A stretch of 64,000 nucleotides of DNA from assembly GCA_044360305.1 (NCBI GenBank), contig JBIKKQ010000001.1, positions 6,760 to 70,759 of the forward strand. Direction: 5' to 3'. This document shows, in pieces, positions 25,449 to 45,405 of the stretch. This DNA comes from Pirellulales bacterium (GTDB lineage: Bacteria > Planctomycetota > Planctomycetia > Pirellulales > UBA1268). A program made the position numbers and the translations under genes. The first letter of the stretch is position 1; the number at the start of each line of letters is the position of its first letter. The notes beneath the pieces are model-generated. The model was not told where the DNA came from. It saw nothing but the letters and a program-made list of their open reading frames with translations, and ran no database searches.

Positions 25449-26533
25449 GCACGGCCCCGACCGAGACCGCCGTCCGCAGCCTGCTCGGCGAGATCGCCGA
25501 TCCCGAGTCCGGCCGACCGCTCACGGAGATGGGCCAGGTCGTGGCGGTCGCGGCCGCCCCGGCGGCGATCGCCGTCACGGTCGGCCTCACGACCCACTCC
25601 GCCATCCTCTGGAACGCGACCCGGGGCCGGATCGAGGAGCTGCTCCGCAGCCGGTTTCCCGGCGTGCCGCAGGTGACGGTCACCATCGTGCCGCACGACC
25701 GGCCGCCTCCGAAGCTCGGCCAGATCGGCCTCGAGGCGAAGAGCGTGATCGCCGTCGGCTCCGGCAAGGGGGGCGTGGGCAAGAGCACGATCGCCGCCTC
25801 GATCGCCATCGGGCTCGCCCGGGCGGGCAGCCGCACCGGCCTCCTCGACGCCGACGTCTACGGGCCGAGCGTGCCCCACCTGCTCGGCCTCTCCGGCCGT
25901 CCGCAGATCGAGGATGGAAAGATCCTGCCGCAGTGGCTCGACGTCGGCCGCAGCCGGATGCCGACGATGTCGATGGGATTCCTCGTGCCGGCCGGCGAGG
26001 CGGTGGTGTGGCGCGGGCCGATGCTCCACGGGGCGATCACGCAGATGCTCCGCGACACCCGCTGGGGGCCGCTCGACTATCTCGTCATCGACATGCCGCC
26101 GGGCACTGGGGACATCGCGCTGACGCTCTCGCAGGTGCTGCCGCTGACCGGTGCCGTCGTGGTCTGCACGCCGCAGGACGTGGCCCTGCTCGACGCCACC
26201 AAGGCGATCGCGATGTTCCGCAAGGTCAACATCCCGCTCCTCGGCATGGTGGAGAACATGAGCTTCTTCATCTGCCCCGACACGGGGAAGCGGTACGACA
26301 TCTTCGGCACGGGCGGGGCGAAGCGGACCGCGCAGGAGCTGGACATCCCGTTTCTCGGCGAGGTGCCGATCCAGATCCCGATCCGCGAGCATGGCGACGC
26401 CGGGCGGACGGCGGCCAACTACGACGATCCGGCCGCGGCCCCGTATTTCGAGGCGATCTGCGCGCGGCTGGTCGGCACTCTCGCCGCGGCCACGGCCGCC
26501 CGACCGCCGCTCCCGTCGCTGCCGGTGCTCTGA
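25445..26533 (+). CDS. apbC: Mrp/ApbC/NBP35-family P-loop ATPase with N-terminal DUF59-like domain
   Basis: ATGA overlap with the nuoN stop. Walker A VIAVGSGKGGVGKSTIAASIA, then LLDADVYGPSVP and DYLVIDMPPGTGD. The usual CxxC is CPDT here (ENMSFFICPDTGKRYDIFG, 26273-26284). Confidence 0.88.
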   Translation: MSTAPTETAVRSLLGEIADPESGRPLTEMGQVVAVAAAPAAIAVTVGLTTHSAILWNATRGRIEELLRSRFPGVPQVTVTIVPHDRPPPKLGQIGLEAKSVIAVGSGKGGVGKSTIAASIAIGLARAGSRTGLLDADVYGPSVPHLLGLSGRPQIEDGKILPQWLDVGRSRMPTMSMGFLVPAGEAVVWRGPMLHGAITQMLRDTRWGPLDYLVIDMPPGTGDIALTLSQVLPLTGAVVVCTPQDVALLDATKAIAMFRKVNIPLLGMVENMSFFICPDTGKRYDIFGTGGAKRTAQELDIPFLGEVPIQIPIREHGDAGRTAANYDDPAAAPYFEAICARLVGTLAAATAARPPLPSLPVL

Positions 26534-26539
26534 TACGCG
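26364..26539. repeat. Left copy of the island-flanking direct repeat (functional 3' end of the mrp/apbC gene)
   Basis: Hand alignment with 36424-36593: 11 substitutions counted in the last ~155 nt plus one 6-nt indel. Both copies end ...GTGCTCTGATACGCG, and similarity stops right after it. Confidence 0.85.
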
Positions 26540-26682: not shown

Positions 26683-27992
26683 GGCCCATCGGGGATTTTG
26701 TGGGTGGCTCCGTAGTGGAGAATGCGGCTTCCCCCCGGAGGCAAGACGCATGTTCGACACGGAGCTCTATCAGCAGGTTCTCTTCTTGACCGCTCCTTGG
26801 AAGGTGACGGACGTGAGGCTCGATGTCGAGTCAACAGAGATCCACGTCCACGTCGAGCATCCCGAGGGCTGCCGCTGGAGCTGCCCGCATTGTAGCCGAG
26901 AGTTGGCCTGCTACGACCATGCGCCCGAGCGGCGGTGGCGGCATCTCAACACCTGCCAGTTCCACACGCTCGTCCATGCGCGTGTCCCACGGGTCGAGTG
27001 CCCCGAGCACGGAGTGGTGCAGGTCAAGGTTCCGTGGGCGGAGCCCCACGGCCGCTTCACCCTGCTCATGGAGCGGTTTGTGATCGACGTCCTCCAGGCC
27101 TGCCAGACCGTGAAGGGAGCATGCACCCTCGTCGGCATCTCCTGGGATCAGGCCTGGCACGTCTTGGATCGCGCTGTTGCCCGTGGGCTGGCCCGCAAGG
27201 AGGCAGACACGATCGCGCGTATCGGCATCGACGAGAAGGCATTCCGCAAGGGCCATCGGTACCTGACCATCGTCAACGACGTTGACCGGGGGACCGTGGA
27301 GTTCGTTGAGGAAGGCCGGGAAAAGGCGAGTTTGGCGGCATTCTACGAGTCCCGCACTCCGGAGCAGCTCGCGGGCATCGAGGCAGTGGCGATGGATATG
27401 TGGGAGCCCTACGTTCAAGCCACCCTCGAAGCCGTTCCTCTGGCTTCCTCAAAGATCGTCTTCGACCGCTTCCATGTCATGCAGCACATGACCGAAGCCG
27501 TGGATGTGGTGCGCCGCCGCGAGAATCGGCTGCTGACAGCTGAGGACGACGATCGCCTCAAGGGCACGAAGTACCTGTGGATCTCCTCCAAGGAGAACGT
27601 CCATCCCAAACGCCAGGCGGAGTTCCGCTTCCTCCGAGGAAGTGATCTCAAGACAGCCCGAGCCTGGACCATCAAGGAGAATCTGCGGCACCTGTGGTCG
27701 TTCCGTGTCGAGGGTTGGGCTCGTCGGTTCTTCTCTCAATGGAGCGGCTGGGCGATGCGGAGCCGCCTCGAGCCGATCAAGGCCGTAGCCCGCATGATCG
27801 ACCGCCGCCTCGACAACATCATCACCCACTGCCGCCATCAACTGACCAACGCCGTCGCCGAGGGTCTCAACAGCAAGATCATGGCCATCAAGCGTCGGGC
27901 CGGGGGCTACCGCAACGTCGGACACTTCAAGACCGTGATCTACTTCTACTGCGGCGGATTACGGCTCTACCCATGAAGTTCCCGGATGGACC
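26683..27992 (+). mobile_element. ISL3-family insertion sequence (~1.3 kb)
   Basis: Contains the ISL3 transposase gene. Imperfect terminal inverted repeats: left GGCCCATCGGGGATTTTGTGGGTGGCTCCGT, reverse complement of right GGTCCATCCGGGAACTTCATGGGTAGAGCCGT (about 25/33 with one gap). The transposase stop lies inside the right repeat. No 8-bp target duplication was found (CCGTTATC vs CCCATACA). Confidence 0.6.
26750..27976 (+). CDS. ISL3 family transposase
   Basis: 408 aa. Zn-finger-like N-terminus: WSCPHCSRELACYDHAPERRWRHLNTCQFHTLVHARVPRVECPEHGV. DDE region: IGIDEKAFRKGHRYLTIVNDVDRGTVEFV...VAMDMWEPY...VFDRFHVMQHM...NAVAEGLNSKIMAIKRRAGGYRN. Confidence 0.92.
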   Translation: MFDTELYQQVLFLTAPWKVTDVRLDVESTEIHVHVEHPEGCRWSCPHCSRELACYDHAPERRWRHLNTCQFHTLVHARVPRVECPEHGVVQVKVPWAEPHGRFTLLMERFVIDVLQACQTVKGACTLVGISWDQAWHVLDRAVARGLARKEADTIARIGIDEKAFRKGHRYLTIVNDVDRGTVEFVEEGREKASLAAFYESRTPEQLAGIEAVAMDMWEPYVQATLEAVPLASSKIVFDRFHVMQHMTEAVDVVRRRENRLLTAEDDDRLKGTKYLWISSKENVHPKRQAEFRFLRGSDLKTARAWTIKENLRHLWSFRVEGWARRFFSQWSGWAMRSRLEPIKAVARMIDRRLDNIITHCRHQLTNAVAEGLNSKIMAIKRRAGGYRNVGHFKTVIYFYCGGLRLYP

Positions 27993-28349
27993 CCCATACA
28001 AGACGACGTCCATCAGATGAGCCTTGTACATCAGATACCCCGTGCCGGCGTTCGCTGCCAGATCGACACCGAGGTTCACGATCGTTCCAGCTGCCGGCAC
28101 ACGTGCCGCCGAGTCGACGGCGATGTCAATCACCTGAATAGTTGCCAGAGCGAAATCGTATGGCCCACCGAGTGGCCTACGATCGCCGAGGGCGGGATTG
28201 ACAACAAGACCCCACACACCACGTTCCCCCGGCGGGGCGATCTCGTCCACGTGCCGAGCAGGGCTGCTGCCGGCCGGCTGTGGCACGAACCAGGATTTCC
28301 AACGCAGGCCACGGCGAAGGTGCCACGCACGGCCCCTGAACGCCTGCAT
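27993..28349 (-). pseudogene. Possible ORF fragment truncated by the IS right end
   Basis: The minus-strand ORF 27927..28349 reads ...PLGGPYDFALATIQVIDIAVDSAARVPAAGTIVNLGVDLAANAGTGYLMYKAHLMDVVLYG, then runs straight into the IS inverted repeat. No family recognised. Confidence 0.25.
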
Positions 28350-28391: not shown

Positions 28392-29273
28392 TCAGCTGTC
28401 GGGTAGTTCCAGGGGCACGAACTCCTTCTCTTCGTATGTCCGATCTGTGTCGAAGAACTCCACCTCCTGGACCTTTTCCTCCGGGGGATCTGCTTCGTCC
28501 TCGTATTTCCCAACTTCTTCGTATGTCGGAGGCGCGAATGGGTCGGGGGTGAAGCGAAGATTCGGACAGGCTTCACGCAGGAGGTACGGAATCGTCGGTG
28601 GTTCGATGTTCGACCCGATATGAAGCTCCTGTAGTTGTGGCATTGCTTTGAATATCGGCAGGAGCCCGGGACTAACGGCCAGATTGTCTACATGAAGTAC
28701 CTGCAGGTGCGGCAGCCGCGCGAGAGGTTCGAGCTCCTCTGCCGTGACGGAGGCTTCAACGAACACGCTCCGCAGTGTCTTGATCTCCGCGAGCGCCTGA
28801 AAGACGTCGATTGCGGGTTTCTTACGGTCATAGCATCCGATGCCGATCGTTTCGAGGGCGGGGCAGCTTCCGAGAGATCGAACGTCAGCGGGAGAGACTT
28901 CGGTTTCGATCCACAGTCGCGAGAGACGCGGCAACCGAGCCAAAGAAGCCAGTACGCCCGGATCGAGCCGCCCTGACACGGAGAGTTGCTCGATATGCCG
29001 CGCCCGCGCGAGGTCGTTTGCGTCTCGGACCGTGAGTCCGTGCTCGGCATGAATTTTCGTCCATGCAGGCTTGTACTGCAACGGCCAGATGTAACGCAAC
29101 CGGTGCGTCGAAATGCGTGTGCTGTGTCCGCTGTGGCCGTTCTCCCAGCCGAGTTCCCGCAGCCGGAAGTCGATGTACCACGGCCAGGCCAACCGAAGTG
29201 CGAGCAACAAGCACGCGACAACGACCGCGGCAGTGAAGATGAAGACGGGCCATCTGGAAGTGACGGGAGTCAT
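28392..29273 (-). CDS. Membrane-anchored LRR-like (RNI-type) repeat protein, paralog 1
   Basis: Start at MTPVTSRWPVFIFTAAVVVACLLLALRLAWPWYIDFRLRELGWENG (29273), by analogy with paralog 2. It has one N-terminal TM helix. Repeats of ~25-28 aa follow: LARLPRLSRLWIE..., LAEIKTLRSVFVE..., LARLPHLQVLHVD..., AMPQLQELHIG. Confidence 0.75.
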   Translation of the reverse strand: MTPVTSRWPVFIFTAAVVVACLLLALRLAWPWYIDFRLRELGWENGHSGHSTRISTHRLRYIWPLQYKPAWTKIHAEHGLTVRDANDLARARHIEQLSVSGRLDPGVLASLARLPRLSRLWIETEVSPADVRSLGSCPALETIGIGCYDRKKPAIDVFQALAEIKTLRSVFVEASVTAEELEPLARLPHLQVLHVDNLAVSPGLLPIFKAMPQLQELHIGSNIEPPTIPYLLREACPNLRFTPDPFAPPTYEEVGKYEDEADPPEEKVQEVEFFDTDRTYEEKEFVPLELPDS

Positions 29274-29381
29274 GGGCTGATCACAGAGGGCCATCGGCGA
29301 GCGAGAGCGACCGACCACAACATGGTCAAGGGTCCTGTTCGTAAGCCAGGGTGACGCTGTGGCTTTCGTAGCGGCTGAACG

Positions 29382-29414
29382 TGCCCAGATTTGGTGCCTG
29401 GCACCTTTATCCTC
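29382..29414. repeat. Conserved 33-nt element, copy B (20 nt downstream of the LRR paralog 2 stop)
   Basis: TGCCCAGATTTGGTGCCTGGCACCTTTATCCTC. It contains the perfect palindrome GGTGCC-T-GGCACC. Confidence 0.8.
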
Positions 29415-29433
29415 CTCAGGAGTCGTGGCCCGC

Positions 29434-30285
29434 TCACTCCTGCAACGGCGAAGGGTTGTCTTGCTGTTCGAAGACGGTTTCGTCGTAGTTGGAGTCCGAC
29501 AAAGGCCCGCCGTCATCCGGCAACACCTTGAGCTTTGGGCAGGCATGCCGCAGCTCAGGGGCAAGATCCGGATATACGTTGCCACCGCCGAGGCCGACTT
29601 GTTGGAGTTGCGGCATGCCTTGGAATACCCGCGCCAGCCCTGGACTGGGCCGGAGACCCGGCACAATCAGAAAACGAAGGTTCGGCAGCCGCGACAATGG
29701 CTCGAGTTCTTCGGCCGTCACAGACGAGCCGATGACCACTCGCCGGAGCGTCTTGATTTCGGCTAGTGCCGCATAGAAATCCATCCCCTGCCCATCACTG
29801 CTGTCAACGTAGATCGACTCGAGGGACTGCGAGTCGCGTAGGTCACGTAGATCCTCTCCGCGGACATCCGTAATGAGTGACAGGTGCAGTAGGCGTGGCA
29901 GTCGAACTAAAGGAGCCAATGTGCCTGGGAGGATACGGCCGTCTACATGCAGTTTTTCGATTTGCCCAGCTCGCGACAGGTCTTTGGCGTCGCGACTTGT
30001 GAGACCGGCGCGGGCGTAGACCTCCTTCCATTCCGGTTTGTACCGCAACGGCCATGTGTAATGAATCTGCTGGCCGCCCCTGTAGACCGCGCTGCGCGAA
30101 CTGTAGGCAGCACCGCCGGGATTGAAGACCGCACTGCCCGGTTTATCCCCATTCTCCCAACCCAACCTCCCGAGACTGAGCTCGACGTACCACGGCCAGG
30201 CCCACTGTGTCCCGAAAATAATGGTCACCGCAAGCACGCCGGCGCCGGCCAGCAACCCGCGCCATCTCGAGGTGATTCGCTTCAT
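29434..30285 (-). CDS. Membrane-anchored LRR-like (RNI-type) repeat protein, paralog 2
   Basis: MKRITSRWRGLLAGAGVLAVTIIFGTQWAWPWYVELSLGRLGWENG...YTWPLRYKPEWKEVYARAGLTSRDAKDL...LAEIKTLRRVVIGSSVTAEELEPLSRLPNLRFL. Collinear with paralog 1. Confidence 0.8.
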   Translation of the reverse strand: MKRITSRWRGLLAGAGVLAVTIIFGTQWAWPWYVELSLGRLGWENGDKPGSAVFNPGGAAYSSRSAVYRGGQQIHYTWPLRYKPEWKEVYARAGLTSRDAKDLSRAGQIEKLHVDGRILPGTLAPLVRLPRLLHLSLITDVRGEDLRDLRDSQSLESIYVDSSDGQGMDFYAALAEIKTLRRVVIGSSVTAEELEPLSRLPNLRFLIVPGLRPSPGLARVFQGMPQLQQVGLGGGNVYPDLAPELRHACPKLKVLPDDGGPLSDSNYDETVFEQQDNPSPLQE

Positions 30286-30740: not shown

Positions 30741-31298
30741 TCATTTCTTGTCTCGGTCCGGCTCACTGGCCTTGGGCTTGGGAAGTGCCAGCACGGCCTT
30801 GGACAATTCCTCGGCCGTCTTCGCCTCGATTACCGGAATGTCCTTCACGTCGATAGTGAACGGCTCGTACCCGGCCGCCACCATGCGCTCGTGAGCCACC
30901 TCCTCCTGCTTCTCCCCTGAGCGCAATTTGGCGAGCCCGTACACGAAGGTGACATCCCCCTTCTCGGGCAACTTCGCCCACACCAGGACCACCGAGACGC
31001 CCAACTCCCCGGCGAAGTCCGGCGTGGTGCCGTCGGCCCAAAACACGTCGGTCCCGACCCGCCCGTTCAGCGACCAGTACACGCCAGTCGTCCCACTCAC
31101 CCCAACTGCGGTGCCCGGCCTCACCCGCACAGCGAGGAGGTGGTACGTCCGACCGCCGGACTCCAGGGTCTTCCCCGCGACCTTCGCGACGGCGGTGATG
31201 GACTCGATGTCGGGTCTCCCGGCGTCCGGCTTCGGAGCTTGTGCGGTGGCGACCGCCGCGGTCATCGCGGCGAGGCTAAGTGCTAAACTCGATGTCAT
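30741..31298 (-). CDS. Secreted hypothetical protein (~185 aa) overlapping the end of the giant gene
   Basis: The ATG at 31298 gives MTSSLALSLAAMTAAVATAQA|PKP (Sec signal-like). It overlaps the last 23 nt of the upstream 1546-aa ORF (stop at 31276-31278). Confidence 0.65.
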   Translation of the reverse strand: MTSSLALSLAAMTAAVATAQAPKPDAGRPDIESITAVAKVAGKTLESGGRTYHLLAVRVRPGTAVGVSGTTGVYWSLNGRVGTDVFWADGTTPDFAGELGVSVVLVWAKLPEKGDVTFVYGLAKLRSGEKQEEVAHERMVAAGYEPFTIDVKDIPVIEAKTAEELSKAVLALPKPKASEPDRDKK

Positions 31299-34200
31299 CG
31301 AAGATCGCCCTCCCGGTGGCGGTGCGGTCGAACACAAACCGCACCTTAGTTATGGCCGACGAATCGAACGCCCGGCCGTTCGTCTTCAGGGCAGCCAGGT
31401 CGACTCTGTAAGTTTGCATCGCCGTTTTCGTGATGTTGTCGGGATCGACTTTGTACGGCCCGATCCGAGCCGCTGAGGGTACGGTCAACCCCCCGAGCCG
31501 GCCCACGTCGAAGTACACACTGTTGCCCGAGGCGTCGATCAACTCGGCCGTGAGCGACGTGGGGGTCGTGATCGACCGGTGCAGGCCCGCCCGGAACGAC
31601 AGGAACTTGGTGGTCGTAGCATCAACCCCGCCGAGAGGAGTTTGCTCGTAGTAACCCGTTCCGCCTCTGGCCTTGTTGTCCCACGCCAGTTCTACTCCAA
31701 TCTCCGTCGTGCCCTGGTAGTACCCCTCCGCGTTGTTGTCGAGCGAAGTATCGACCGCCGCTGCCGGAGCGGCTGGGGTGACGAGCCGCTCGCTCTTCGT
31801 AGACCCTCCGGAACTCGTATCGCCGAACTTGGGCTTGGCCTGGAAGTCGTCCAGCACACGCGCGGTGGACCGGTGGAACTGGGTCACGATCGGGTTGGGC
31901 ACGGCCGCCGCAGACAGCTTGGGGCCGATTTGCGCGGCAGGCCGACTGAAATACTCGAGGTACGGCCCCCCCCAGATCCACGCCAGCGTGTATCCGGCGA
32001 GGAGGTTCTCGTGGTACGCTCGGTCCTCGAGCCCGCCCCCAACCGCGTACACCCCGACCGTGCCCCCCGCCGGCGTGCCCATCCCCCCGCGGAGATCGAC
32101 GACGTCGAACGCTCCGTCGATCGTGCTCTTCGCGTCGTTGTACGGCCACGACCTGTTGAACAGATTGTGGCTCACGCCCGGGACGAACAGCGATGCCTTG
32201 ACCGTTGTGGCCCTCGCGGCGTCGTACAGCTTCAAGCCGCCGGCGTAGTCGACGTCGCCGTCGGCCGCCCCGTGGATACTGAGATAAGGCCTCGCCCCGA
32301 CCGATTGTTCTCGGAAAGCGGTGGGGGCCAGCGAGATGACCCGCGAGATTGCGAACGGGGCGATCTTTCCACCGGGGGCAGCGGCCGCGAACGGTCCGGT
32401 CAGCGTGTCCACCATGTTCGCCAGTTCCACCACCGCCTCCCCGCCACGAGAATGCCCCAGCAGGGTCACATCGGCGAAGTCAATGTGACCCTCGATCTTA
32501 CTGCCACTCCCTGCGGCGTTCATCGCACGAATCCGATCGACGTTTTTGGCAGCTGCGTATGCCCGAACCAGGATACCCGGACCCCACCTGTAATACCGGT
32601 CAAGATCGACGCTGACGGACGCATACCCCTGCTGAGCTAGCCGCTCCTGGAGGTACGTGTAGCCCAGGTAGTTTTCGTCGCTGGTGATCGCGTCGGCCTG
32701 AGCCGCTGTGAGGGCGCCCGCGGCTACCCCTGACAGTGCCGTGCTTCGCGGTAAGTGGTTCCCGTGGAGGATGACGACCAGCGGGAACGGCCCTCCAGGC
32801 GCGGCGGGGGCCTTCTCAACCGGCATCGCGGCCCCGACAAGAGGAGTCGGGTAGTACACGCGGCCATGGATCCAGTGGTCGGTGACCGTCCCGGGGAATC
32901 CGTCGTAGCCGGCGGGTGTGGTGAATTGGTCAGCCGCTTTGGCCGTAGCTCCGCTGCTCCCGTAGTCGATGTACCCGGCGTCGTAAGCGGCCGGCTTCTT
33001 GAGCGGGTCATATACGATCTGCACCTCGGCATCTTTCGGGTTCGTCGTGAACACCCCCACGATGTCCCCTGGGTCCAGTTGCCCGTTCTGGCCGGGCTCG
33101 CCTTTGTCGTCTGCGATGTCGATCACCACGTCATACTGCCCCACGGGAGCATGGTCGGTGAGCGTCCGCGTATTCGCGGCGAGCGACACCGCACTGAGCG
33201 GGGCGGTCGGTGTCACGCTTACGTTCTTCGACGCGTACGTGCCGTCCGCGGCCCATTGGGCAGGTGTCCGTGTGGGGTGGATCAGGAACCTCGCTTGTGG
33301 TCCGCCCGCCAGCGTCTCGTAGCCGGTCAACTGCGACCACGTCGCGGGGTCCAGCGCGATCGAGACGGGCTGCGTGTGGTTGAACGTATGCACGTACTGG
33401 AAGTCGGGCGCGCCGCTCAGCGGAATGCCGGCCAGGCCGGCGACGTCTGTCACTCGGAAGGCGACCCGATCGGTCTGAATCACGCGGCCACGGTACGTGT
33501 ACTCCACAAGGACATCCGATATGCCGCCTTTCGTGCTGCCGCCGACCAGGAACCGCTTGGCCGGGGCCGCGGCGGTCAACTCGGCGGCGGGTACTTGTGT
33601 CGCGGGCGACGCCTTCTTGCCGTCTGCCGTCCACAGGTCGAGCGAGCGCGTGGTGACCGAGATCGCGCCGCGGGCCGACGGGACCGTGGCCGCCACCTTC
33701 AGCGGCAGCATCAGGTACTTGTTCTGTGCGAACGTGGCTTCGTCAACGTTCACCGGGTTGTATCGCACGGTCGAGGGGTTGGTCGCCTCGGTGTTGTCGT
33801 CTACCCCGAATGCCGCCAGGTCGAAGTACACCGCCGTCGCCTTGTCCGCAACCTTTGCATTGGGGAAGCTGGCCGGGATCGGGGCGTACTCGGCCGCCAG
33901 AACAGGGTTGGCCGCGTCACGCCGGAAGTGGGGCATTGTCGGCGCTCCGGCAGCCGGCGTGCCGGCTGCGTCGACGACAACGAACTGGGTTCCCCCGACC
34001 TGGTCGAGCGTGAGCGATGACCACGCCTTCGCTTTCCCGTCGGAGCCATTCATCCACAGGGGCGTGGGGAGTGTCAGCACGGCGTCGCCGGCCGCGGCGA
34101 GCGCCGGAGCGACGCGGAATCGGTACAAGGCCCCGCTCGGCACGGCGTCGGGTTGGGCGGATGCAGCGGCACCGAGATTGATCGGAGCGAGGTAATTCTG

Positions 34201-35916
34201 CCCCTTGGCGGCGTCGAAACGCACCTCCAAGATCAGCTCCTCGTACCCGGTCCGGCCGGCTGAGTTGGTCGCCCTGAACAGGTATCGTTTCCGTGTCCCG
34301 AGGGGAAGTGTGCGAAGCGCGTCAAGCCCGGCCAACTCGTACCGCTTCGATACCGACGAGGAGAAAACCCCGCCCGCTTGACCGTCCGGCGCCACCTCGA
34401 GCGGCGTCCACGCATTTCCATCGATCGAGACGGCAATCTGGGGGACCGGGCCGAGCCGATCACGGGCGACCAGCGTGCGCTCGGCGAACTCGTACGTCGC
34501 CCCGGCGAGGTTGTCGGGGGTCAGGTCGGGAACCGTTACCACCGGGTTTGGCCGGTATCGCGACACCATGTCGCCGGCGTCCTCCCAGGCGTCACCCGCC
34601 TTTCGCTGGATGTCGAGGTCGGCCACCGTGCCCCGCACCGCGTCCGTCAGGTTTCCGATCCCGGCCGGTGCCCCTTCGAGCGTGACCGTGATTCGGGTGT
34701 CGCCGGCGGCGGCACTGGCCTGGACGGTCTCGAGGTAGAACGTGATCGTTTGCCTGGCCGTGACGGCAGGGTCCAGCCCGAGTTGGGCGAGCGTGTACCT
34801 TCCGGGAGCCACGTAGTCACCCCCGCCGGTCTTGATCGATTTGTCGAACGCCGCTGCATTCCGCAGCGTCGCCCCCGGCTTGGCCCAGAGCCGCGCAGTT
34901 CCCGGTGCCGGCGAATACACATCGGTGGCCCTGTCGTAAGTGACGGCGAGCGGGTTCGAGCCCTTGTAGTCGATGACAACGACCGCCTGGCTGAGGTCGA
35001 TCGAACCGGTCGGAAGCGTGAGGACGACGGGAACGAATTCCTCCGCCACAGTGGCACGCGCGACCGCGTCTTTGTCGGCGGCATCCATGTCGGGGAGGTC
35101 CAGACCGTAGCCGTCCGCGAAGTCCGGGACAAAGTCACCGTCCTTGTCCTCGTCGTTGACGGCCACCACCTTGCCCGGTCCCGTGTCTTCGATCCTGTCA
35201 TCTTTCCCGGCCGGGCTGTTGTCGGGGTCGATCGCGCCGTCGTTGTTGGAATCCACGTCGAGATCGACGGACGGCAGCGTCAGGTCGGCCCCGAAGACGA
35301 CGTTGTTGGTGCCGAGGCCGTTGAGGGACACGGTGACCCTGTCGCCGATCGGGCCGACGCCGGCCTTGTTTGGAAAGAACGCCTTGTAGGCCGACGCCGG
35401 GTCGGCAGAGCCGTAGAGCTTCGGGATCGCCGTCATGTCGACAAACATCTGGTAGCTCTTGGCCGCGGGCTGGGCGAAGGCGCGGAAGGCGAAGTCGTAG
35501 CTCGTGCCGCTGCCGACGCCGCCGGGCAGCTGGACGGTGGCGGCGGGCAGTTGGCCGGTGGCGGCTTCACGCACGTTGATCGCGGACCCGCGCCAGGAGG
35601 CACTGCCCTCGAACTGGACGGTGAAATCGCCCGGTTCGGCGTAGGTGCTGAAGCTCGTGCGGCCGTCGTTATTGAGCCTGATGGTGCGGCCGTCGCTGTC
35701 CTTTTCGAACGAGGCCGGCTGGTAGCTGTCGTTGTCGAGGTCGAAGCGGATCGTGGGCGAGAAACCGGCGATGCTGCCGTCACTGGCCGTGGCCCGGACG
35801 CCGATGCCGAGGATCGTATTGCCCGCCTCAAAGGCTCCGGCAGAGACGCGAATCTCCCTCCCGCCGGGAATCGGAGCGAACCGCCCTGCAATGAATCCGT
35901 CGGGCGCGGGAGCCAC
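31276..35916 (-). CDS. Giant exported protein body: Asp-rich Ca-binding-like motifs, beta-rich repeats, alpha/beta-hydrolase domain (GHSRG) and C-terminal beta-sandwich-like domain
   Basis: Uninterrupted 1546-codon frame from the GTG at 35916. Hydrolase hallmarks: PFPLVVILHGNH (about 32761-32796), nucleophile elbow VTLLGHSRGGEAV (Ser codon 32449-32451), HGAADGDVD, PGVSHNLFN (about 32161-32190). Asp-rich VDLDVDSNNDGAIDPDNSPAGKDDRIED...VNDEDKDGDFVPDFADGYG. The frame stays open and protein-like upstream to an in-frame TGA at 36049-36051. Confidence 0.8.
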   Translation of the reverse strand: MAPAPDGFIAGRFAPIPGGREIRVSAGAFEAGNTILGIGVRATASDGSIAGFSPTIRFDLDNDSYQPASFEKDSDGRTIRLNNDGRTSFSTYAEPGDFTVQFEGSASWRGSAINVREAATGQLPAATVQLPGGVGSGTSYDFAFRAFAQPAAKSYQMFVDMTAIPKLYGSADPASAYKAFFPNKAGVGPIGDRVTVSLNGLGTNNVVFGADLTLPSVDLDVDSNNDGAIDPDNSPAGKDDRIEDTGPGKVVAVNDEDKDGDFVPDFADGYGLDLPDMDAADKDAVARATVAEEFVPVVLTLPTGSIDLSQAVVVIDYKGSNPLAVTYDRATDVYSPAPGTARLWAKPGATLRNAAAFDKSIKTGGGDYVAPGRYTLAQLGLDPAVTARQTITFYLETVQASAAAGDTRITVTLEGAPAGIGNLTDAVRGTVADLDIQRKAGDAWEDAGDMVSRYRPNPVVTVPDLTPDNLAGATYEFAERTLVARDRLGPVPQIAVSIDGNAWTPLEVAPDGQAGGVFSSSVSKRYELAGLDALRTLPLGTRKRYLFRATNSAGRTGYEELILEVRFDAAKGQNYLAPINLGAAASAQPDAVPSGALYRFRVAPALAAAGDAVLTLPTPLWMNGSDGKAKAWSSLTLDQVGGTQFVVVDAAGTPAAGAPTMPHFRRDAANPVLAAEYAPIPASFPNAKVADKATAVYFDLAAFGVDDNTEATNPSTVRYNPVNVDEATFAQNKYLMLPLKVAATVPSARGAISVTTRSLDLWTADGKKASPATQVPAAELTAAAPAKRFLVGGSTKGGISDVLVEYTYRGRVIQTDRVAFRVTDVAGLAGIPLSGAPDFQYVHTFNHTQPVSIALDPATWSQLTGYETLAGGPQARFLIHPTRTPAQWAADGTYASKNVSVTPTAPLSAVSLAANTRTLTDHAPVGQYDVVIDIADDKGEPGQNGQLDPGDIVGVFTTNPKDAEVQIVYDPLKKPAAYDAGYIDYGSSGATAKAADQFTTPAGYDGFPGTVTDHWIHGRVYYPTPLVGAAMPVEKAPAAPGGPFPLVVILHGNHLPRSTALSGVAAGALTAAQADAITSDENYLGYTYLQERLAQQGYASVSVDLDRYYRWGPGILVRAYAAAKNVDRIRAMNAAGSGSKIEGHIDFADVTLLGHSRGGEAVVELANMVDTLTGPFAAAAPGGKIAPFAISRVISLAPTAFREQSVGARPYLSIHGAADGDVDYAGGLKLYDAARATTVKASLFVPGVSHNLFNRSWPYNDAKSTIDGAFDVVDLRGGMGTPAGGTVGVYAVGGGLEDRAYHENLLAGYTLAWIWGGPYLEYFSRPAAQIGPKLSAAAVPNPIVTQFHRSTARVLDDFQAKPKFGDTSSGGSTKSERLVTPAAPAAAVDTSLDNNAEGYYQGTTEIGVELAWDNKARGGTGYYEQTPLGGVDATTTKFLSFRAGLHRSITTPTSLTAELIDASGNSVYFDVGRLGGLTVPSAARIGPYKVDPDNITKTAMQTYRVDLAALKTNGRAFDSSAITKVRFVFDRTATGRAIFDDIEFST

Positions 35917-36048
35917 GGCTTTGACCGGGTCTCCGCTGATCGCGTCGCCGGCGAACGCGAACGTGGCGGTGTAGACCTCGTAGGTGTCCCTGCCCGTCGT
36001 TCCACCGGAACCGTAGATGCCGCCTGCGGTGGAGAGCCCGCGGCTCGT

Positions 36049-36234
36049 TCAGCAGGTCCAGGAGAGCCCGCCGTCAATGGCCACGCCGGCGAGCATGGCG
36101 CGGGATTCGAGCGGTTCGGCGCCGATGGGCCGGCGGCTCAGGCTGCGGGCGGAGCGACGGCGCCGCGGCTGGGCCGTGCGGCCAACGAACGCGGCGATAA
36201 GCGAACGGGAACGGCGGGAAAGGTTGCGAAGCAT
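36049..36234 (-). CDS. Detached N-terminal leader of the giant gene (61 codons ending at an in-frame TGA)
   Basis: MLRNLSRRSRSLIAAFVGRTAQPRRRRSARSLSRRPIGAEPLESRAMLAGVAIDGGLSWTC*. It is in the same frame as 31276..35916, exactly 44 codons upstream of its GTG. I recognise the ...EPLE.R.MLAG motif from N-termini of large planctomycetal exported proteins. Confidence 0.55.
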   Translation of the reverse strand: MLRNLSRRSRSLIAAFVGRTAQPRRRRSARSLSRRPIGAEPLESRAMLAGVAIDGGLSWTC

Positions 36235-36385
36235 TGGTGTACCGAAGGCAGGAGGAAAACAGGCAGGCATCGGCGGGGCGGCGAGGATCCCCCGCACGTG
36301 CACGATCAGCGCGTGACGTGGCGCGAGGGCCTCGCTCGCGGGACGGTAACGTACCGGGCGGGGGGGGCGTCAATGGGCCGCCGAT

Positions 36386-36404
36386 GAAATCTCGATGAGA
36401 TTTC
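36386..36404. promoter_or_regulatory. AT-rich perfect palindrome GAAATCTC-GAT-GAGATTTC upstream of the island operon
   Basis: Read directly. It lies ~150 nt upstream of the leader ATG (36234) and ~20 nt from the right island repeat. Confidence 0.35.
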
Positions 36405-36423
36405 GCTTCAGGCCCGCGAAGGC

Positions 36424-36593
36424 TGCCGATCCCGACCCGCGAGCATGGCGACGCCGGGCGGACGGCCGCCAACTACGATGATCCGGCCGCGGCCCCGTAT
36501 CTCGAGGCCATCTGCACGCGGCTGGTCGGCAATCTCGCCGCGGCGACGGCAGCCCGACCGCCGCTCCCCGCGCTGCCCGTGCTCTGATACGCG
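36424..36593 (+). pseudogene. Right copy of the flanking repeat: orphan 3' fragment of an mrp/apbC allele
   Basis: Encodes ...REHGDAGRTAANYDDPAAAPYLEAICTRLVGNLAAATAARPPLPALPVL*, versus ...PYFEAICARLVGTLAAATAARPPLPSLPVL* in the intact gene. Same stop position. 7 of the 11 substitutions I counted are synonymous. Confidence 0.8.
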
Positions 36594-36614
36594 AACGGTC
36601 CCGGGCGGGCCCCG

Positions 36615-36944
36615 TCAGTGCGCCGCGGCTTTCGAGAACAGGTTCAGGACGACGACGCCGGCCACGATCAGTCCCATGCCGAGCAGCGCCGCCGCGTCGA
36701 GCTTCTGGCCCATGAACAGCCAGCCGATCGCGGCCACGAGCGTCACGCCCGCGCCCGACCAGACCGCATAGGCCACTCCCACCGGAATCGTGTCGAGCGT
36801 GCGCGAGAGGAAAAAGAAGGCCAGGCCGTAGCCCACCACGACCGCCAGGCTCGGCAGCGGCTTCGTGAAACCCGCGGACGCCCTCAAGAAACTCGTCCCG
36901 ACCACCTCGGCCACGATCGCGATCGCCAGATAGATCCAGTGCAT
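36615..36944 (-). CDS. SMR-family small multidrug efflux protein (EmrE/QacE-like)
   Basis: 109 aa, 4 TM helices. [23 protein letters not shown]...[30 protein letters not shown], with the conserved membrane Glu in AEVVGT. Confidence 0.88.
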
Positions 36945-40681: not shown

Positions 40682-41992
40682 TCAGCCGCGTTGACGCGGT
40701 TCGGGCAGCCCCCAGGCGACCGCCCCCCCGGCCGCGATCACCAGGGCCCCGACGAGAAACACCGGCCGGAAACCGACGACGTCGATCCCCCAGCCCACCA
40801 GCGGCGAGATCGCGAACGGGGCCGCCAGCGCGGCCCCGACGAGGCTCACGTAGCGGGCGTGTTCGCCGGGCCGCGGCGCGAGTTCCAGGGCGTAGTTCGT
40901 GAACATCGTCAGCGCGATCGGATTCAGCCCCAGCGGCGCGTAGACGAGCCAGAACCAGCCCGCCGCGACGGCCGGCGGCAGGTAGGAAAGCGCCGTCACC
41001 AGCACCGGCGTGAGCGCCGCGCCCCCCACGAGCCAGGCGAGCACCAGCCGGGTCCCGCGCCGGTCCGCGACCGGGCCGGCCACGAGGCTGGCGCACGCGG
41101 TGGCCGCGTTCTGCACCACGACCCACGTCAGCAGGCTGCCGCGCGGGCAGCCGAGGTCGTCGCGGGCGAAGGCCTGATAGTGGGGGAAGAGCATGAGCAC
41201 GGCCGAGAACATCGCCGCCACCACCGCCAGGCGAACCAGCGCCGGATCGGCGGCGACCGCCTCGCGCCAGCCGGCCAGCCCCGGCCGCGGACCGGCGGCG
41301 GCCGCGGGCCGATCGGCGGGCTCGTCGAGCAGCGCGGGAATCGCGGCGGCCAGACCGAAGAAGCCCGCCGTCGCCGCGAAGATCCGCGGGAAGCCGTCCG
41401 CCGCGGCGAGCCACGGGCCGAGGAGGGCCACGGCCGCCACGATCGCCAGGATGCTCCCGATCGTCACGCTGACCACCATGGCCCGGCCGCGCTGCCCCGG
41501 CGGAATCAGCTTGCCGCGCAGCGCCGCAGCCACGAGCTGGTTGAGCCCGTTGGCCACCGAGAAGGTCGCGTAGACGAGCAGGAACAACACCGCCAGCAGA
41601 TCCGGACGGACGGCCTGCAGCGGCTGCCAGGCGACCGCCAGCACCGCGAAGCAGGCGGCCATCGCCAGGCTCGTGCGGACGAGCGTCCACTTCTTCACCG
41701 GCCGGCGGCCGAGCACGCCGGCGAAGGCCAGCGGCGGCAGGCTCTGCCCCGCCCGGTTGAGCACCGGGAGGAACCCGCGCAGCAGGCCCGAATCGACGAC
41801 CGCGTCGAGCACCGCAGGCATGATGATGGTCTCGGTCTTGAAGATCCACCCCACCCGGACGACGACCTGATAGGCCTCGAGCCGGAGGATGTTGCGGGCT
41901 TCACGGCCGGGGTCGGGGCCGCCGACGGTCCCGCTCGCGTTGCATCCGGGGCCGGCAGGGGTAGGATTTGCGGATGTCGGCGGCGGGTTCAT
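40682..41992 (-). CDS. MFS-type transporter
   Basis: Only the last 436 codons of ORF 40682..43174 are used (start MNPPPTS at 41992). About 12 hydrophobic helices. The upstream part of that ORF is antisense to the lactonase gene. Confidence 0.7.
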   Translation of the reverse strand: MNPPPTSANPTPAGPGCNASGTVGGPDPGREARNILRLEAYQVVVRVGWIFKTETIIMPAVLDAVVDSGLLRGFLPVLNRAGQSLPPLAFAGVLGRRPVKKWTLVRTSLAMAACFAVLAVAWQPLQAVRPDLLAVLFLLVYATFSVANGLNQLVAAALRGKLIPPGQRGRAMVVSVTIGSILAIVAAVALLGPWLAAADGFPRIFAATAGFFGLAAAIPALLDEPADRPAAAAGPRPGLAGWREAVAADPALVRLAVVAAMFSAVLMLFPHYQAFARDDLGCPRGSLLTWVVVQNAATACASLVAGPVADRRGTRLVLAWLVGGAALTPVLVTALSYLPPAVAAGWFWLVYAPLGLNPIALTMFTNYALELAPRPGEHARYVSLVGAALAAPFAISPLVGWGIDVVGFRPVFLVGALVIAAGGAVAWGLPEPRQRG

Positions 41993-42019
41993 CGCCGCAG
42001 AACATGAGGAGTTTTCCCG

Positions 42020-43120
42020 ATGCCGTCCATCCGCGTTCTCGCGGCCCTGTTGTTGCTCGCGGCGACCATGCCGCCGGCCGCGGCGTCGGCCGCCGAGCAG
42101 CTCGTCTGGTTCGGCACCTACACCGGCCAAGGCACCGGGTCGGAGGGGATCTACGTCGCCCGGTTCGACGACCAGGCGGGCACGTTCGGTCCGGTGGAAC
42201 TCGCCGCCAAGACGACCACGCCCTCGTTCATCGCCCTGCATCCGACGCTGCCCGTGCTCTACGCGGCCTGCGAATTCGTGGGCAAGGTCGAGGCGTTCAC
42301 AATCGACGAGGCGACCGGCAAGCTGGCGCCGAAGGGCCGCGGGGCGGCCTGGGCCTGCCATCTGTCCGTCACGCCCCGCGGATCCGCGATGCTGGCCGCC
42401 GGGGGTGCGGGAGTCGCCTGCCTGCAGCTCGGGGCCGACGGCGGCATCGGCAGCGCCGTGGTGCTCGCACACAAGGCTCCTCCAGGCGTCGGTGCCAAGT
42501 CGTTTCCCCACTCCGCCTATCCGACGCCGGACGGCCGGTTCGCCGTCGCCTGCGACATGAACTTCGACCGCGTCTTCGTCCACGCGCTCGACGCTGCCAA
42601 GCCGGCCCTCGCGACCCACGGCGAAGTCGCGCTGCCTGCCGGCACCGGCCCGCGGCACTTCGCCTTCCATCCCGGCGGCCGCCACGGCTACGCGGTGAAC
42701 GAGAAGAATGCGACCGTGACGGCGTTCGCCTTCGATCCCGAGGCGGGCGTGCTCTCCGAGTTGCAGACGATCTCCACGCTCCCGGAGGGCACCACCGACA
42801 AGTGCGCCACCGCGGAGATTGCCATCCATCCCTCCGGTCGGTTTCTCTACGCCTCGAACCGTGGCCCCGACTCGATCGCGATGTACGCCGTCGACGCGAC
42901 CACGGGGAAACTTTCCTTCCTCGGCGCGGAGCCGATCCGCGGCAAGGAACCGCGAAACTTCGTCATCGCCCCCGGCGGCCGGTTTCTCCTCGCCGCCGGC
43001 CAGCACTCGGCCAGCGTGACGGTGTTCGCCATCGACCCGGATAGCGGCCGGCTCGAGTTCACGGGCACCAAGGCCGACGTGCCCACGCCGACCTGCATCC
43101 GCTTCCGGCCGGCAGGGTGA
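42020..43120 (+). CDS. Secreted 7-bladed beta-propeller lactonase (6-phosphogluconolactonase/YbhE-like)
   Basis: Signal MPSIRVLAALLLLAATMPPAAASA. IYVARFD...PSFIALHP...PRHFAFHPGGRHGYAVNEKNATVTAFAFD...IAIHPSGRFLYASNRG.DSIAMYAVD...PRNFVIAPGGRFLLAAGQHSASVTVFAID. Confidence 0.8.
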   Translation: MPSIRVLAALLLLAATMPPAAASAAEQLVWFGTYTGQGTGSEGIYVARFDDQAGTFGPVELAAKTTTPSFIALHPTLPVLYAACEFVGKVEAFTIDEATGKLAPKGRGAAWACHLSVTPRGSAMLAAGGAGVACLQLGADGGIGSAVVLAHKAPPGVGAKSFPHSAYPTPDGRFAVACDMNFDRVFVHALDAAKPALATHGEVALPAGTGPRHFAFHPGGRHGYAVNEKNATVTAFAFDPEAGVLSELQTISTLPEGTTDKCATAEIAIHPSGRFLYASNRGPDSIAMYAVDATTGKLSFLGAEPIRGKEPRNFVIAPGGRFLLAAGQHSASVTVFAIDPDSGRLEFTGTKADVPTPTCIRFRPAG

Positions 43121-43127
43121 ACAGCCG

Positions 43128-43478
43128 ATGATGCTCTGTCTGCTGAAGTCGAAGATCCACCGCGCGGTGGTCACCGGCGCCTCGGTCGATTACGAGGGGA
43201 GCCTGACGATCGCCGCCGACCTCGCCGCACGGGTCGGGCTCCGGGCCTACGAGCGGATCCTCGTCGGCAACATGGCCAACGGCGAGCGGTTCGAGACCTA
43301 CGTGATCCTCGGACCGGAAGGTTCCGGCGTCATCGAGCTCAACGGCGCCACCGCCCACCTCGGCAAGCCGGGGGACAGGCTGACGATCATGTCGTTCACC
43401 TGGATCGACTCGGCCGAGGCCGCGGATCACCATCCGGCCGTGATCGTGCTCGGCGCCGGCAACACCGTCGTGCGCTGA
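43128..43478 (+). CDS. panD: Aspartate 1-decarboxylase
   Basis: LLKSKIHRAVVTGASVDYEGSLTIAADL (self-cleavage G|S site)...GERFETYVI...GVIELNGATAHLGKPGDRLTIMSF. Confidence 0.93.
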   Translation: MMLCLLKSKIHRAVVTGASVDYEGSLTIAADLAARVGLRAYERILVGNMANGERFETYVILGPEGSGVIELNGATAHLGKPGDRLTIMSFTWIDSAEAADHHPAVIVLGAGNTVVR

Positions 43479-44059
43479 TGATCAGCCTGCGCCGCCGAAC
43501 GATCGTCGCGGTGCTGGCGGCGATCGCCGGCTGCGGCGGGCCGGCCCGGCCCCATCCCGCCGTCGGACAGCGGTTTCCGGCGTTGCCGATCCGGCGGCTC
43601 ACCGATCCGACCGTGCCGGCTCCGACGCTCACCGGCAAGGTCACGCTGGTCAACTTCTGGGGGCCATGGTGCCCCCCCTGCCGCCGCGAGTTGCCGGCCC
43701 TTGCCCGGCTTGCCGCCCGGCTCCGCGACGATCCGCGATTCCAGTTCGTCGCCGTGGCGAGCGCGGCGGGGCCCGACGACGAGGCGGATCTCGCCGCCGA
43801 CGTGAAGCGGTTCCTCTCGGCCGAGCGGCTCGACATCGACGCCTGGGCATTCGCCGATTCGCTCTCCCGCCTTCCGTTCACCGCCGGGGGCGTCGCGGGC
43901 CCGCTGCTCGAAGCCTTTCCCACGACCTATCTGATCGGCAGCGACGGCACCGTGCTGCACGGCTGGATCGGCTACCGTGAGGGCATCGAGACCGAGATCG
44001 CCGGCGCCGTCGTCACGGCGCTGCGCGACGTTCCCGCACCACCGTCGCCCGGCCATTGA
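43478..44059 (+). CDS. TlpA/ResA-like thiol:disulfide oxidoreductase lipoprotein
   Basis: ATGA overlap with panD. Lipobox LAAIAGCGG; thioredoxin motif [16 protein letters not shown]. Confidence 0.82.
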
Positions 44060-44097
44060 CCGGGCGTGAATCACACCTCGAGGAGGACCGCGCCCCA

Positions 44098-45405
44098 ATG
44101 GCGACCACGATCAGCGCACTCGACGTCCACGACCTGCGGTTCCCCACGTCGCGGGAGCTCGACGGCTCCGACGCGATGAACCCCGACCCGGACTATTCCG
44201 CCGCCTACTGCGTGCTGCGGACCGCGGGGGGACCGGAGGGGCACGGATTCACGTTCACGATCGGCCGCGGCAACCAGCTCTGCTGCCAGGCGATCGAGGC
44301 GCTGCGGCCCCTGGTCGTCGGCCAGTCGCTGGAGGCGATCGCCGCCGACATGGCCGGCTTCTGGCGCCGGATCACGGGCGACAGCCAGCTGCGCTGGGTC
44401 GGCCCCGAGAAGGGGGTGATCCACATGGCGACCGGCGCGGTCGTCAACGCGGTCTGGGACCTGCTGGCGAAGCGGGCGGGCAGGCCGCTGTGGCGGCTGC
44501 TGGCGGAGATGTCGCCGGAGGAGCTCGTGGCCTGCATCGACTTCCGCTACATCACCGACGCCCTGACGCCGGACGAGGCGCTGGCGATCCTCGCCCGGCT
44601 CGCCCCGACCCGGGCCGAACGGATCGCGCACCTCGAGGCCGAGGGCTATCCCGCCTACACGACCTCCGCCGGCTGGCTCGGCTACTCCGACGACAAGCTC
44701 CGCGACCTCTGCCGGCGCGGGCTGGCCGCCGGCTGGGACTGCTTCAAGATCAAGGTCGGCCGTGACCTCGCCGACGACATCCGGCGCTGCCGGATCATCC
44801 GCGACGAGATCGGCCCGGCGCGGCGCATGATGGTCGATGCCAACCAGGTCTGGGACGTGCCGCAGGCGATCGAGTGGATGCGGCACCTCGCCGAGTTCCG
44901 GCCGTGGTTCATCGAGGAGCCGACCAGCCCCGATGACATCCTCGGCCACGCCGCGATCGCCAGGGCCGTGGCTCCGATCCTCGTCGCCACCGGCGAGCAC
45001 TGCGCCAACCGGGTGATGTTCAAGCAGTTCATGCAGGCGGGCGCGATCGGCGTTTGCCAGATCGACAGCTGCCGGATCGGCGGCGTCAACGAGATCCTGG
45101 CGGTGATACTCATGGCGGCGAAGTTTGGCATCCCGGTCTGCCCGCACGCCGGCGGCGTCGGCCTCTGCGAGTACGTGCAGCACCTGTCGATGTTCGACTA
45201 CGTCTGCGTCAGCGGCACGCTCGAGAACCGGCTCACGGAGCATGCCGGCCACCTCCACGAGCATTTCAAGGACCCGATCCGGATGCGGAACGGCCGTTAC
45301 CTGCCGCCGACGATGCCCGGCTACAGCGCGGAGATGTGGCCGCGGTCGATCGCGGACCACGAGTTCCCCGGCGGCGCGGTCTGGCGCGACGCGGCCGCGA
45401 CCTGA
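44098..45405 (+). CDS. fucD: L-fuconate dehydratase (enolase superfamily, MR/MLE family)
   Basis: [42 protein letters not shown]...[49 protein letters not shown]. This closely follows the Xanthomonas FucD N-terminus as I recall it. AGGAGG lies 11 nt upstream of the ATG at 44098. Confidence 0.82.

Follow-up and report, generated by a model that had tools for sequence, protein, structure and literature searches.

A premature TGA just past the export leader of a giant planctomycete gene very probably marks a recent null allele

The window analysed here, a stretch of 64,000 nucleotides from a Pirellulales bacterium, carries on its minus strand a short leader ORF and a 1546-codon ORF that are separated by an in-frame TGA. 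We conclude with high confidence that this stop marks a null or near-null allele, which arose through a recent clustered double substitution that converted GGC-TGG to TGC-TGA. The affected gene belongs to an uncultured freshwater member of the Planctomycetia and would encode a large protein that is secreted or located at the surface; the double substitution struck codons 61 and 62, just past the export leader. Because the genome reads TGA as a stop, translation should end with the release of a leader peptide of 61 residues, the other 1590 codons should not be translated, and probably no functional full-length product is made. The outcome would be a null allele, in practice a young pseudogene, with an intact allele persisting in a near-identical strain.

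The reading frames and other features of the locus are collected in Table 1. The coordinates given in an earlier note on this DNA were all confirmed, with the minus-strand ATG at 36234-36232, the TGA at 36051-36049 and the GTG of the large ORF at 35916. The leader that was quoted there is likewise correct; its 61 residues read MLRNLSRRSRSLIAAFVGRTAQPRRRRSARSLSRRPIGAEPLESRAMLAGVAIDGGLSWTC, with the last codons before the TGA giving ...IDGGLSWTC, and the 44 codons after the TGA read TSRGLSTAGGIYGSGGTTGRDTYEVYTATFAFAGDAISGDPVKA (TSRGLSTAGG...GDPVKA), as had been stated. Because 132 nt, or exactly 44 codons, lie between the TGA and the GTG (36048-35916), the leader and the large ORF share one frame, as the note had claimed. 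It had also claimed that the 44 stranded codons contain no start codon, and this holds for ATG, GTG and TTG alike because the ORF listing opens at the first of these codons past a stop. The large ORF ends at a TAG (31278-31276), contains no other in-frame TGA, and is open over all 1590 codons past codon 62. A restart at the GTG at 35916 was considered and rejected; this codon is 132 nt away from the stop, and a protein begun there would be devoid of the leader and would miss 54 residues at the start of the conserved domain.

Table 1. Features of the disrupted gene and its flanks, in window coordinates.
Feature	Position	Strand	Remarks
Ancestral single gene	31276..36234	-	1652 codons (codon 62 now TGA) plus TAG stop; from translation and continuous homologues
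Leader ORF	36049..36234	-	61 codons plus TGA; all that normal termination would let be translated
Leader residues 34-51 (RRPIGAEPLESRAMLAGV)	36082..36135	-	Sub-threshold match to the 'Planctomycete extracellular' motif PF07595
Codon 62, premature stop TGA	36049..36051	-	Arose from an invariant Trp codon TGG (G>A at 36049); UGA-A context
Codon 61, TGC (Cys)	36052..36054	-	Arose by G>T at 36054 from a Gly codon, GGC, that is invariant; the other substitution of the clustered lesion
44 stranded codons, TGA to first possible restart	35917..36048	-	Part of the conserved domain; YGSGG, YEVYT and FAF motifs
Conserved, probably extracellular N-domain	35299..36078	-	Codons 53-312; IDGGLSW.GW ... YDFAFRAF ... 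NGLGxNNV
1546-codon ORF as reported by gene callers	31276..35916	-	GTG start; further stops absent
Allele-difference tract	35569..35898	-	Codons 113-222; clustered, mostly synonymous changes between alleles
C-terminal alpha/beta-hydrolase-like region	32137..32811	-	HGNH ... GHSRGG; phmmer match to PDB 9xg1_A
185-codon ORF	30741..31298	-	23-nt overlap with the end of the large gene; signal-peptide-like N-terminus
Direct repeat, right copy, 166 nt	36428..36593	+	Duplicated last 52 codons plus stop of mrp/apbC; far edge of the island
Direct repeat, left copy, 166 nt	26374..26539	+	Functional 3' end of mrp (25445-26533)

To find homologues, we searched with a protein query in which an X, standing for the stop, joined the leader to the 500 residues that follow. 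This gave planctomycete proteins with the same leader that run on past the stop site without a break. P0001 reads through the site as ...AMLAGLSIDGGLSWDGWTNRGLSNQGGLYGSGGTTGRDTYEVYT..., P0002 to P0007 do likewise, and a 1258-aa paralogue encoded on contig L001 also runs straight through. The alignment with homologues, which are 62-83% identical, continues unbroken from the leader through the 44 stranded codons and into the large ORF, over its first ~270 codons; for P0001-P0007 and the L001 gene the identity is 64-83%. The earlier note had named, as a result that would speak against its interpretation, orthologues that start at the equivalent of the GTG at 35916 and lack the upstream leader; instead, the leader is retained in orthologues and paralogues, which have Trp at the site and no interruption. 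The leader ORF and the 1546-codon ORF are thus one gene of 1652 codons, and the shared frame of the two ORFs is more than chance.

The residues that were lost are invariant. We aligned 13 sequences, the window and 12 homologues, with W62 of the window supplied by hand (alignment A2). The W62 column is an invariant Trp, all 12 homologues are continuous through the site, and the codon-61 column is Gly in every sequence but the window, which has Cys. The alignment has 54 invariant columns, all of which the window keeps save G61 and W62. The TGA falls in an invariant motif, IDGGLSW-x-G-W, at the Trp. The comparison of orthologues that the note had recommended gave TGG as the equivalent codon; in GTDB species genomes GGN-TGG was found at 38 of 38 motif copies (38 sites at 31 genome loci, from several phyla), the best match of that scan being 66% identical at the amino-acid level and located in a Planctomycetia MAG.

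TGC-TGA is identical in five assemblies, namely the window, the ENA metagenome contigs L003 and L004 (ERZ28008831 and ERZ27272046) and L047 (ERZ27272102), and the JGI contig L048 (3300035662). We obtained L047 and L048 by retrieving the surroundings of mrp, the adjacent gene, with flanks of 10 kb. L003 and L004 encode exactly the 1546-aa product, and in L004 and L048 the leader is called as a 46-aa partial ORF that ends at the TGA stop. The TGA carriers differ at other positions, including synonymous changes at codons 103 and 714 and a tract in L047 (codons 188-222); the SNPs among them amount to two isolated synonymous changes, one isolated non-synonymous change and one tract, which is too few for dN/dS. 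Because of these other SNPs the carriers must be separate assemblies and not copies of one, and because separate assemblies share the same TGC-TGA a base-call error, which the note had listed as an option, was rejected: the lesion is shared by five assemblies, from at least four other samples, that differ elsewhere. That the true sequence is GGC-TGG and was altered by sequencing or assembly error is extremely improbable. All that favours this explanation is the prior possibility of such errors and a leader that occurs repetitively in the metagenome and at which contigs break, but the same two-base difference recurs in both ENA and JGI assemblies, two specific substitutions 5 nt apart would be an atypical consensus error, and another sample assembles GGC-TGG, so both states are recovered. 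Comparison of the assembled contigs thus indicates a real lesion and not a sequencing artefact. TGA is the more frequent allele in the assemblies covering the site (5/6, with GGC-TGG in 1/6), and it appears to be both real and common in the sampled population.

The single intact allele is L045 (JGI Ga0315902_10038547), a 5.6-kb contig from another metagenome that was found by a pattern scan of JGI metagenome contigs allowing 8-10 unspecified bases at the site. It is 98.8% identical to window positions 38232-32597 without gaps, and because this ungapped match includes the upstream genes, L045 represents the same locus. At the site it reads TGG ACC GGC TGG ACG, that is, an intact GGC-TGG, and its ORF stays open for 1212 codons from the same ATG to the contig end. 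Over the first 338 nt of the gene, L045 equals the window apart from the two lesion bases. Within the gene 20 of the 23 differences between the two lie in the codon 113-222 tract (L045's own run covers codons 113-212), and the three outside it, in 3.6 kb, are G>T at 36054, G>A at 36049 and a synonymous change at codon 967. The comparison identifies GGC-TGG as the ancestral state, the lesion being set in a 5' region that is otherwise the same in both.

The earlier note had put forward a single nonsense mutation. The nonsense part of this proposal stands but the mutation was not single, as two substitutions 5 nt apart changed GGC to TGC at codon 61 and TGG to TGA at codon 62. The two would have arisen in one clustered mutational event. 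We searched the window for a template of the double substitution using the 13-mer GACCTGCTGAACG with at most one mismatch, and it occurs only at the site itself. Because the other invariant residues of the N-domain are kept and 1590 codons remain without a stop, the lesion is young.

Of the 34 long ORFs with high GC3 in the window, 24 end in TGA, among them the genes for the NuoN-like protein, Mrp and the ISL3 transposase; TGA is the standard stop here and the main terminator of the window. This, together with the lack of a second in-frame TGA in the giant ORF, runs counter to a reassigned code in which UGA is read as Trp. Recoding of any kind, be it a reassigned code, selenocysteine insertion or programmed read-through, would be favoured by the in-frame position of the UGA within a long ORF, as in bacterial selenoprotein genes, by the Cys directly before it and by a small GAGCC/GGCUC hairpin 5 nt downstream. 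However, the hairpin is encoded by conserved SRGLS codons and is found in intact paralogues too, and the segment 35960-36070 (111 nt) has no SECIS-like fold, its MFE of -40.1 being no better than that of shuffled sequences (mean -40.75, z = 0.18). Rfam gave no match at gathering thresholds in the whole window and, at E<=10 in 35800-36650, only a chance-level match to Pseudomon-Rho at 36482-36541; ARAGORN found no tRNA-Sec in the 64-kb window. Homologues of a selenoprotein gene would have Cys or Sec at the aligned position, whereas here they invariably have Trp, and L045, the near-identical allele, lacks the stop. Coding is conserved beyond the stop, yet the stop itself is not conserved, with TGG in L045 and all homologues, and the site is therefore not one of programmed read-through. 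Because TGA is a common terminator, no SECIS-like element was found near the site and the stop is not conserved, recoding is effectively refuted; we give it next to no credence, and the note's suggestion of a recoding or read-through site gained no positive support. Recoding and error, taken together, still amount to a very slight probability.

A real TGA may nevertheless leak. Unprogrammed read-through by tRNA-Trp would then yield a little full-length exported protein in which the ancestral Trp is restored and only G61C is changed, and the gene would be down-regulated rather than dead, with some selection still acting on it. Such UGA read-through usually stays well below a few percent. The stop is followed by A, with no significant structure downstream, and the passage of PMC5289835 that cites Engelberg-Kulka (1981) describes the UGA-A context in E. 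coli as especially prone to misreading by tRNA-Trp, a near-cognate decoding that here would insert the ancestral residue. The 1590 intact downstream codons and the presence of the allele in five assemblies are in line with leakiness, and the intact remainder and the higher frequency of TGA (5/6) would also fit an allele that is tolerated for some product. However, Gly61, which is Gly in all 12 other aligned sequences and at 38/38 sites in the genome scan, is lost too, the fold z-score of 0.18 gives no stimulatory RNA structure, the youth of the lesion explains the intactness of the ORF equally well, and the yield of read-through is expected to be low. A useful level of read-through is not indicated here and, in contrast to a programmed site, the stop is not conserved. 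We therefore consider a leaky allele unlikely and favour a null or near-null allele.

Leader residues 34-51 match positions 2-19 of the 20-position PF07595 model with 16.0 bits (E 0.0099), the cut-off being 25.5, and PF07595 was the top match in six of eight homologous leaders at 12.7-20.2 bits. Because this family is consistently the best match yet stays below 25.5, we regard the relationship as resemblance and not membership. The likeness to the 'Planctomycete extracellular' motif consists in an R-rich stretch followed by ...AEPLESRAMLAG, and in its position right at the N-terminus of a large planctomycete protein that appears to be extracellular; the difference lies in scores below the curated cut-off, here as in the relatives. 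To our knowledge, the export route of PF07595-type leaders has not been established.

The conserved domain opens at IDGG, nine codons before the TGA, and the lesion occupies domain residues 9 and 10. The remark in the earlier note that the body lacks a recognisable export signal without the leader is reasonable. In short relatives from other phyla, the domain directly follows an ordinary signal peptide and a PEP-CTERM anchor stands at the end, with TIGR02595 scoring above its cut-off in P0012 and P0017. Because the domain elsewhere lies between a signal peptide and PEP-CTERM, it is probably an exported domain to which the leader belongs. The N-domain matched no Pfam or NCBIfam family; the window sequence has the invariant residues of the domain at all but the lesion positions. 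A structure model of the standalone homologue P0012 was poor (pLDDT 57.9, pTM 0.62) and Foldseek of this model against PDB gave a best E of 0.13, so no fold was assigned to the domain.

Comparison of the giant protein with Pfam and NCBIfam gave nothing above threshold. Its C-terminal region matched PDB 9xg1_A, a 'protein-asparaginase', in phmmer (E 4.5e-11) and had weak Pfam matches to Hydrolase_4 and PETase. The leader and/or the N-domain are common to P0001, P0002, P0004, P0009, P0011, P0018, the 1258-aa gene of L001 and the window gene, which then diverge; P0018 shares the leader only, and P0009 and P0011 start part-way into the N-domain with no leader seen. Their C-termini are unrelated, for example SdrD-B-like in P0001, DUF2515 in P0009, a DUF900 hydrolase in the L001 gene and hydrolase-like in the window gene. 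A conserved N-terminal module joined to unrelated C-termini recalls polymorphic secreted effectors or toxins, as do a small ORF that overlaps the 3' end of the window gene and an orphan C-terminal fragment nearby. We regard this as resemblance only, however, as no recognised toxin or immunity domain and no linked secretion system was found; on the side of toxin and immunity functions there are a hydrolase-like C-terminus and the overlapping 185-aa ORF without a family match. This 185-codon ORF, which is also called in L003, L004 and L047 and matched no family in Pfam or NCBIfam, is possibly a putative partner or immunity gene of the large gene. With the stop in place it would lose translational coupling, and its translation would suffer from polarity.

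The 5' part of the gene also exists as a paralogous remnant, P0015, which has the same form in three samples (L001 1028-1250, L002 and L044). There, the T of the same Trp codon (TGG) is deleted, resulting in GGC-GGA, with a compensating +1 G about 55 codons on, and P0015 then diverges into unrelated sequence. The 5' module, comprising the upstream region, the leader and the first ~60 codons, is near-identical between the window gene and P0015. A leader-only protein search for more truncated alleles gave two matches, the 5' remnant P0020 and P0021, which may be cut by the end of its 648-nt contig. In L047, six of the seven in-gene differences fall in the codon 113-222 tract, three of them also present in L045, and this tract looks like the product of gene conversion or recombination among alleles or paralogues. 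Two independent contigs, L004 and L048, break off within the leader at an identical base (gene position 44, window ~36191), and a further JGI contig, L038, seems to stop directly upstream of the GTG at 35916; this suggests that the upstream region and leader form a multi-copy repeat that breaks short-read assemblies.

Because the lesion lies in a 5' module that is near-identical among paralogues, gene conversion could repair the gene. The TGA allele could accordingly be a switchable OFF state that conversion from a paralogue restores, with the Trp codon as a recurrent target. The distinct lesion that disrupts P0015 in this same Trp codon in three samples, the near-identical 5' module, the contig breaks at gene position 44 as a sign of a multi-copy repeat and the clustered, conversion-like differences in codons 113-222 all fit such a switch. 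The coincidence consists of only two cases and was noticed after the fact, however, and P0015 is also truncated and fused to unrelated sequence, which makes it a remnant rather than a switchable gene. Moreover, neither a repeat tract nor an invertible element nor a TGC-TGA donor was found in the window, and the assembled contigs gave no evidence of mixed alleles within one sample. We judge a switch of this kind very unlikely. It is quite improbable, too, that the stop reflects not simple decay but a functional setting, OFF or low, of a modular gene for a surface or effector protein, repairable by conversion and with trickle expression through UGA-A; if this were true, the independent lesion of P0015 at the same Trp would mark a recurrent switch or hotspot.

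The preferred reading, a null or near-null allele, agrees well with what is known of nonsense pseudogenes, in which an in-frame stop replaces a conserved sense codon while the remaining ORF is open, an intact allele occurs in a close relative, and the locus lies in a variable, IS-bearing island beside gene remnants. Here, the stop lies within coding sequence that is homologous on both sides, relatives have a sense codon at the site, the stop appears real and TGA is read as stop. The allele differs from this model in that a clustered double substitution (Gly>Cys plus Trp>stop) takes the place of a single-base change and in that the assemblies at hand carry the null allele more often than the intact one. 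A premature stop is a known and ordinary kind of event; this one offers a clean example of a natural null allele beside an intact allele in what would be a clonal freshwater planctomycete population. For annotation, it means that the 1546-aa 'protein' called in several metagenomes is the stranded remainder of a 1652-codon gene and should be flagged as the product of a disrupted gene and not as a leaderless protein. Of greater interest than the stop codon are the family itself, which shuffles C-terminal domains behind a common leader, and its poorly understood export leader.

The gene sits in an island together with a transposase and gene remnants. These surroundings support the earlier note's view that a cargo gene of a decaying island suffered a nonsense mutation, as do the intact L045 and the homologous TGG. 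Two 166-nt direct repeats, 26374-26539 and 36428-36593, are 93% identical and flank a 10-kb low-GC segment that carries the gene, with a GC content of 0.60-0.67 between the repeats compared to about 0.70-0.74 for the genome. A duplicated gene 3' end flanking a segment is the usual footprint of an element integrated at the 3' end of a gene, and the 166-nt repeats have the appearance of such an integration-type footprint; the 10-kb segment contains no integrase. An ISL3-family transposase gene (26750-27976, +) lies inside the segment just after mrp. Abutting it is an orphan fragment (27993-28208, -, within the ORF 27927-28349) that is 57% identical to residues 886-957, the C-terminus, of the 977-aa P0011 and is probably a truncated remnant of the C-terminal domain of another family member. 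The repeats, the transposase, the orphan fragment and the 5' remnants P0015 and P0020 elsewhere show decay and turnover around the gene.

The segment also contains two tandem paralogous ORFs, 28392-29666 (-) and 29434-30285 (-), which belong to repeat families D2 and D3 with a spacing of ~1 kb. Their products are called as 293 and 283 aa in other contigs and have an N-terminal hydrophobic segment; the 283-aa ORF had no Pfam or NCBIfam match. A scan of 35800-36700 for promoters and terminators yielded nothing. Directly outside the right repeat lies an SMR/Qac-family efflux gene of 109 aa (36615-36944, -), whose best NCBIfam matches are below the cut-offs. On L001, an LRR protein follows the intact paralogue.

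Several differences and calls lie further from the stop. In JGI contig 3300034120 (L036/L046, from ~8548) everything on the right-hand side of the IS, past window position ~27992, is wholly different, with HXXSHH and PSCyt/PSD genes; this reflects either structural variation or a join made by the assembly through a further copy of the IS. ARAGORN called a 91-nt 'tRNA-Val (cac)' at 40952-41042 (-), inside the long high-GC3 ORF 40682-43189, and both its length and its location suggest a false positive. Finally, 160 of the 163 differences between the window and L003 fall where positions 1-1500 of L003 align with window 43000-44508, the other 12.5 kb being nearly identical, and this part of the window appears to be a hypervariable or recombinant patch.
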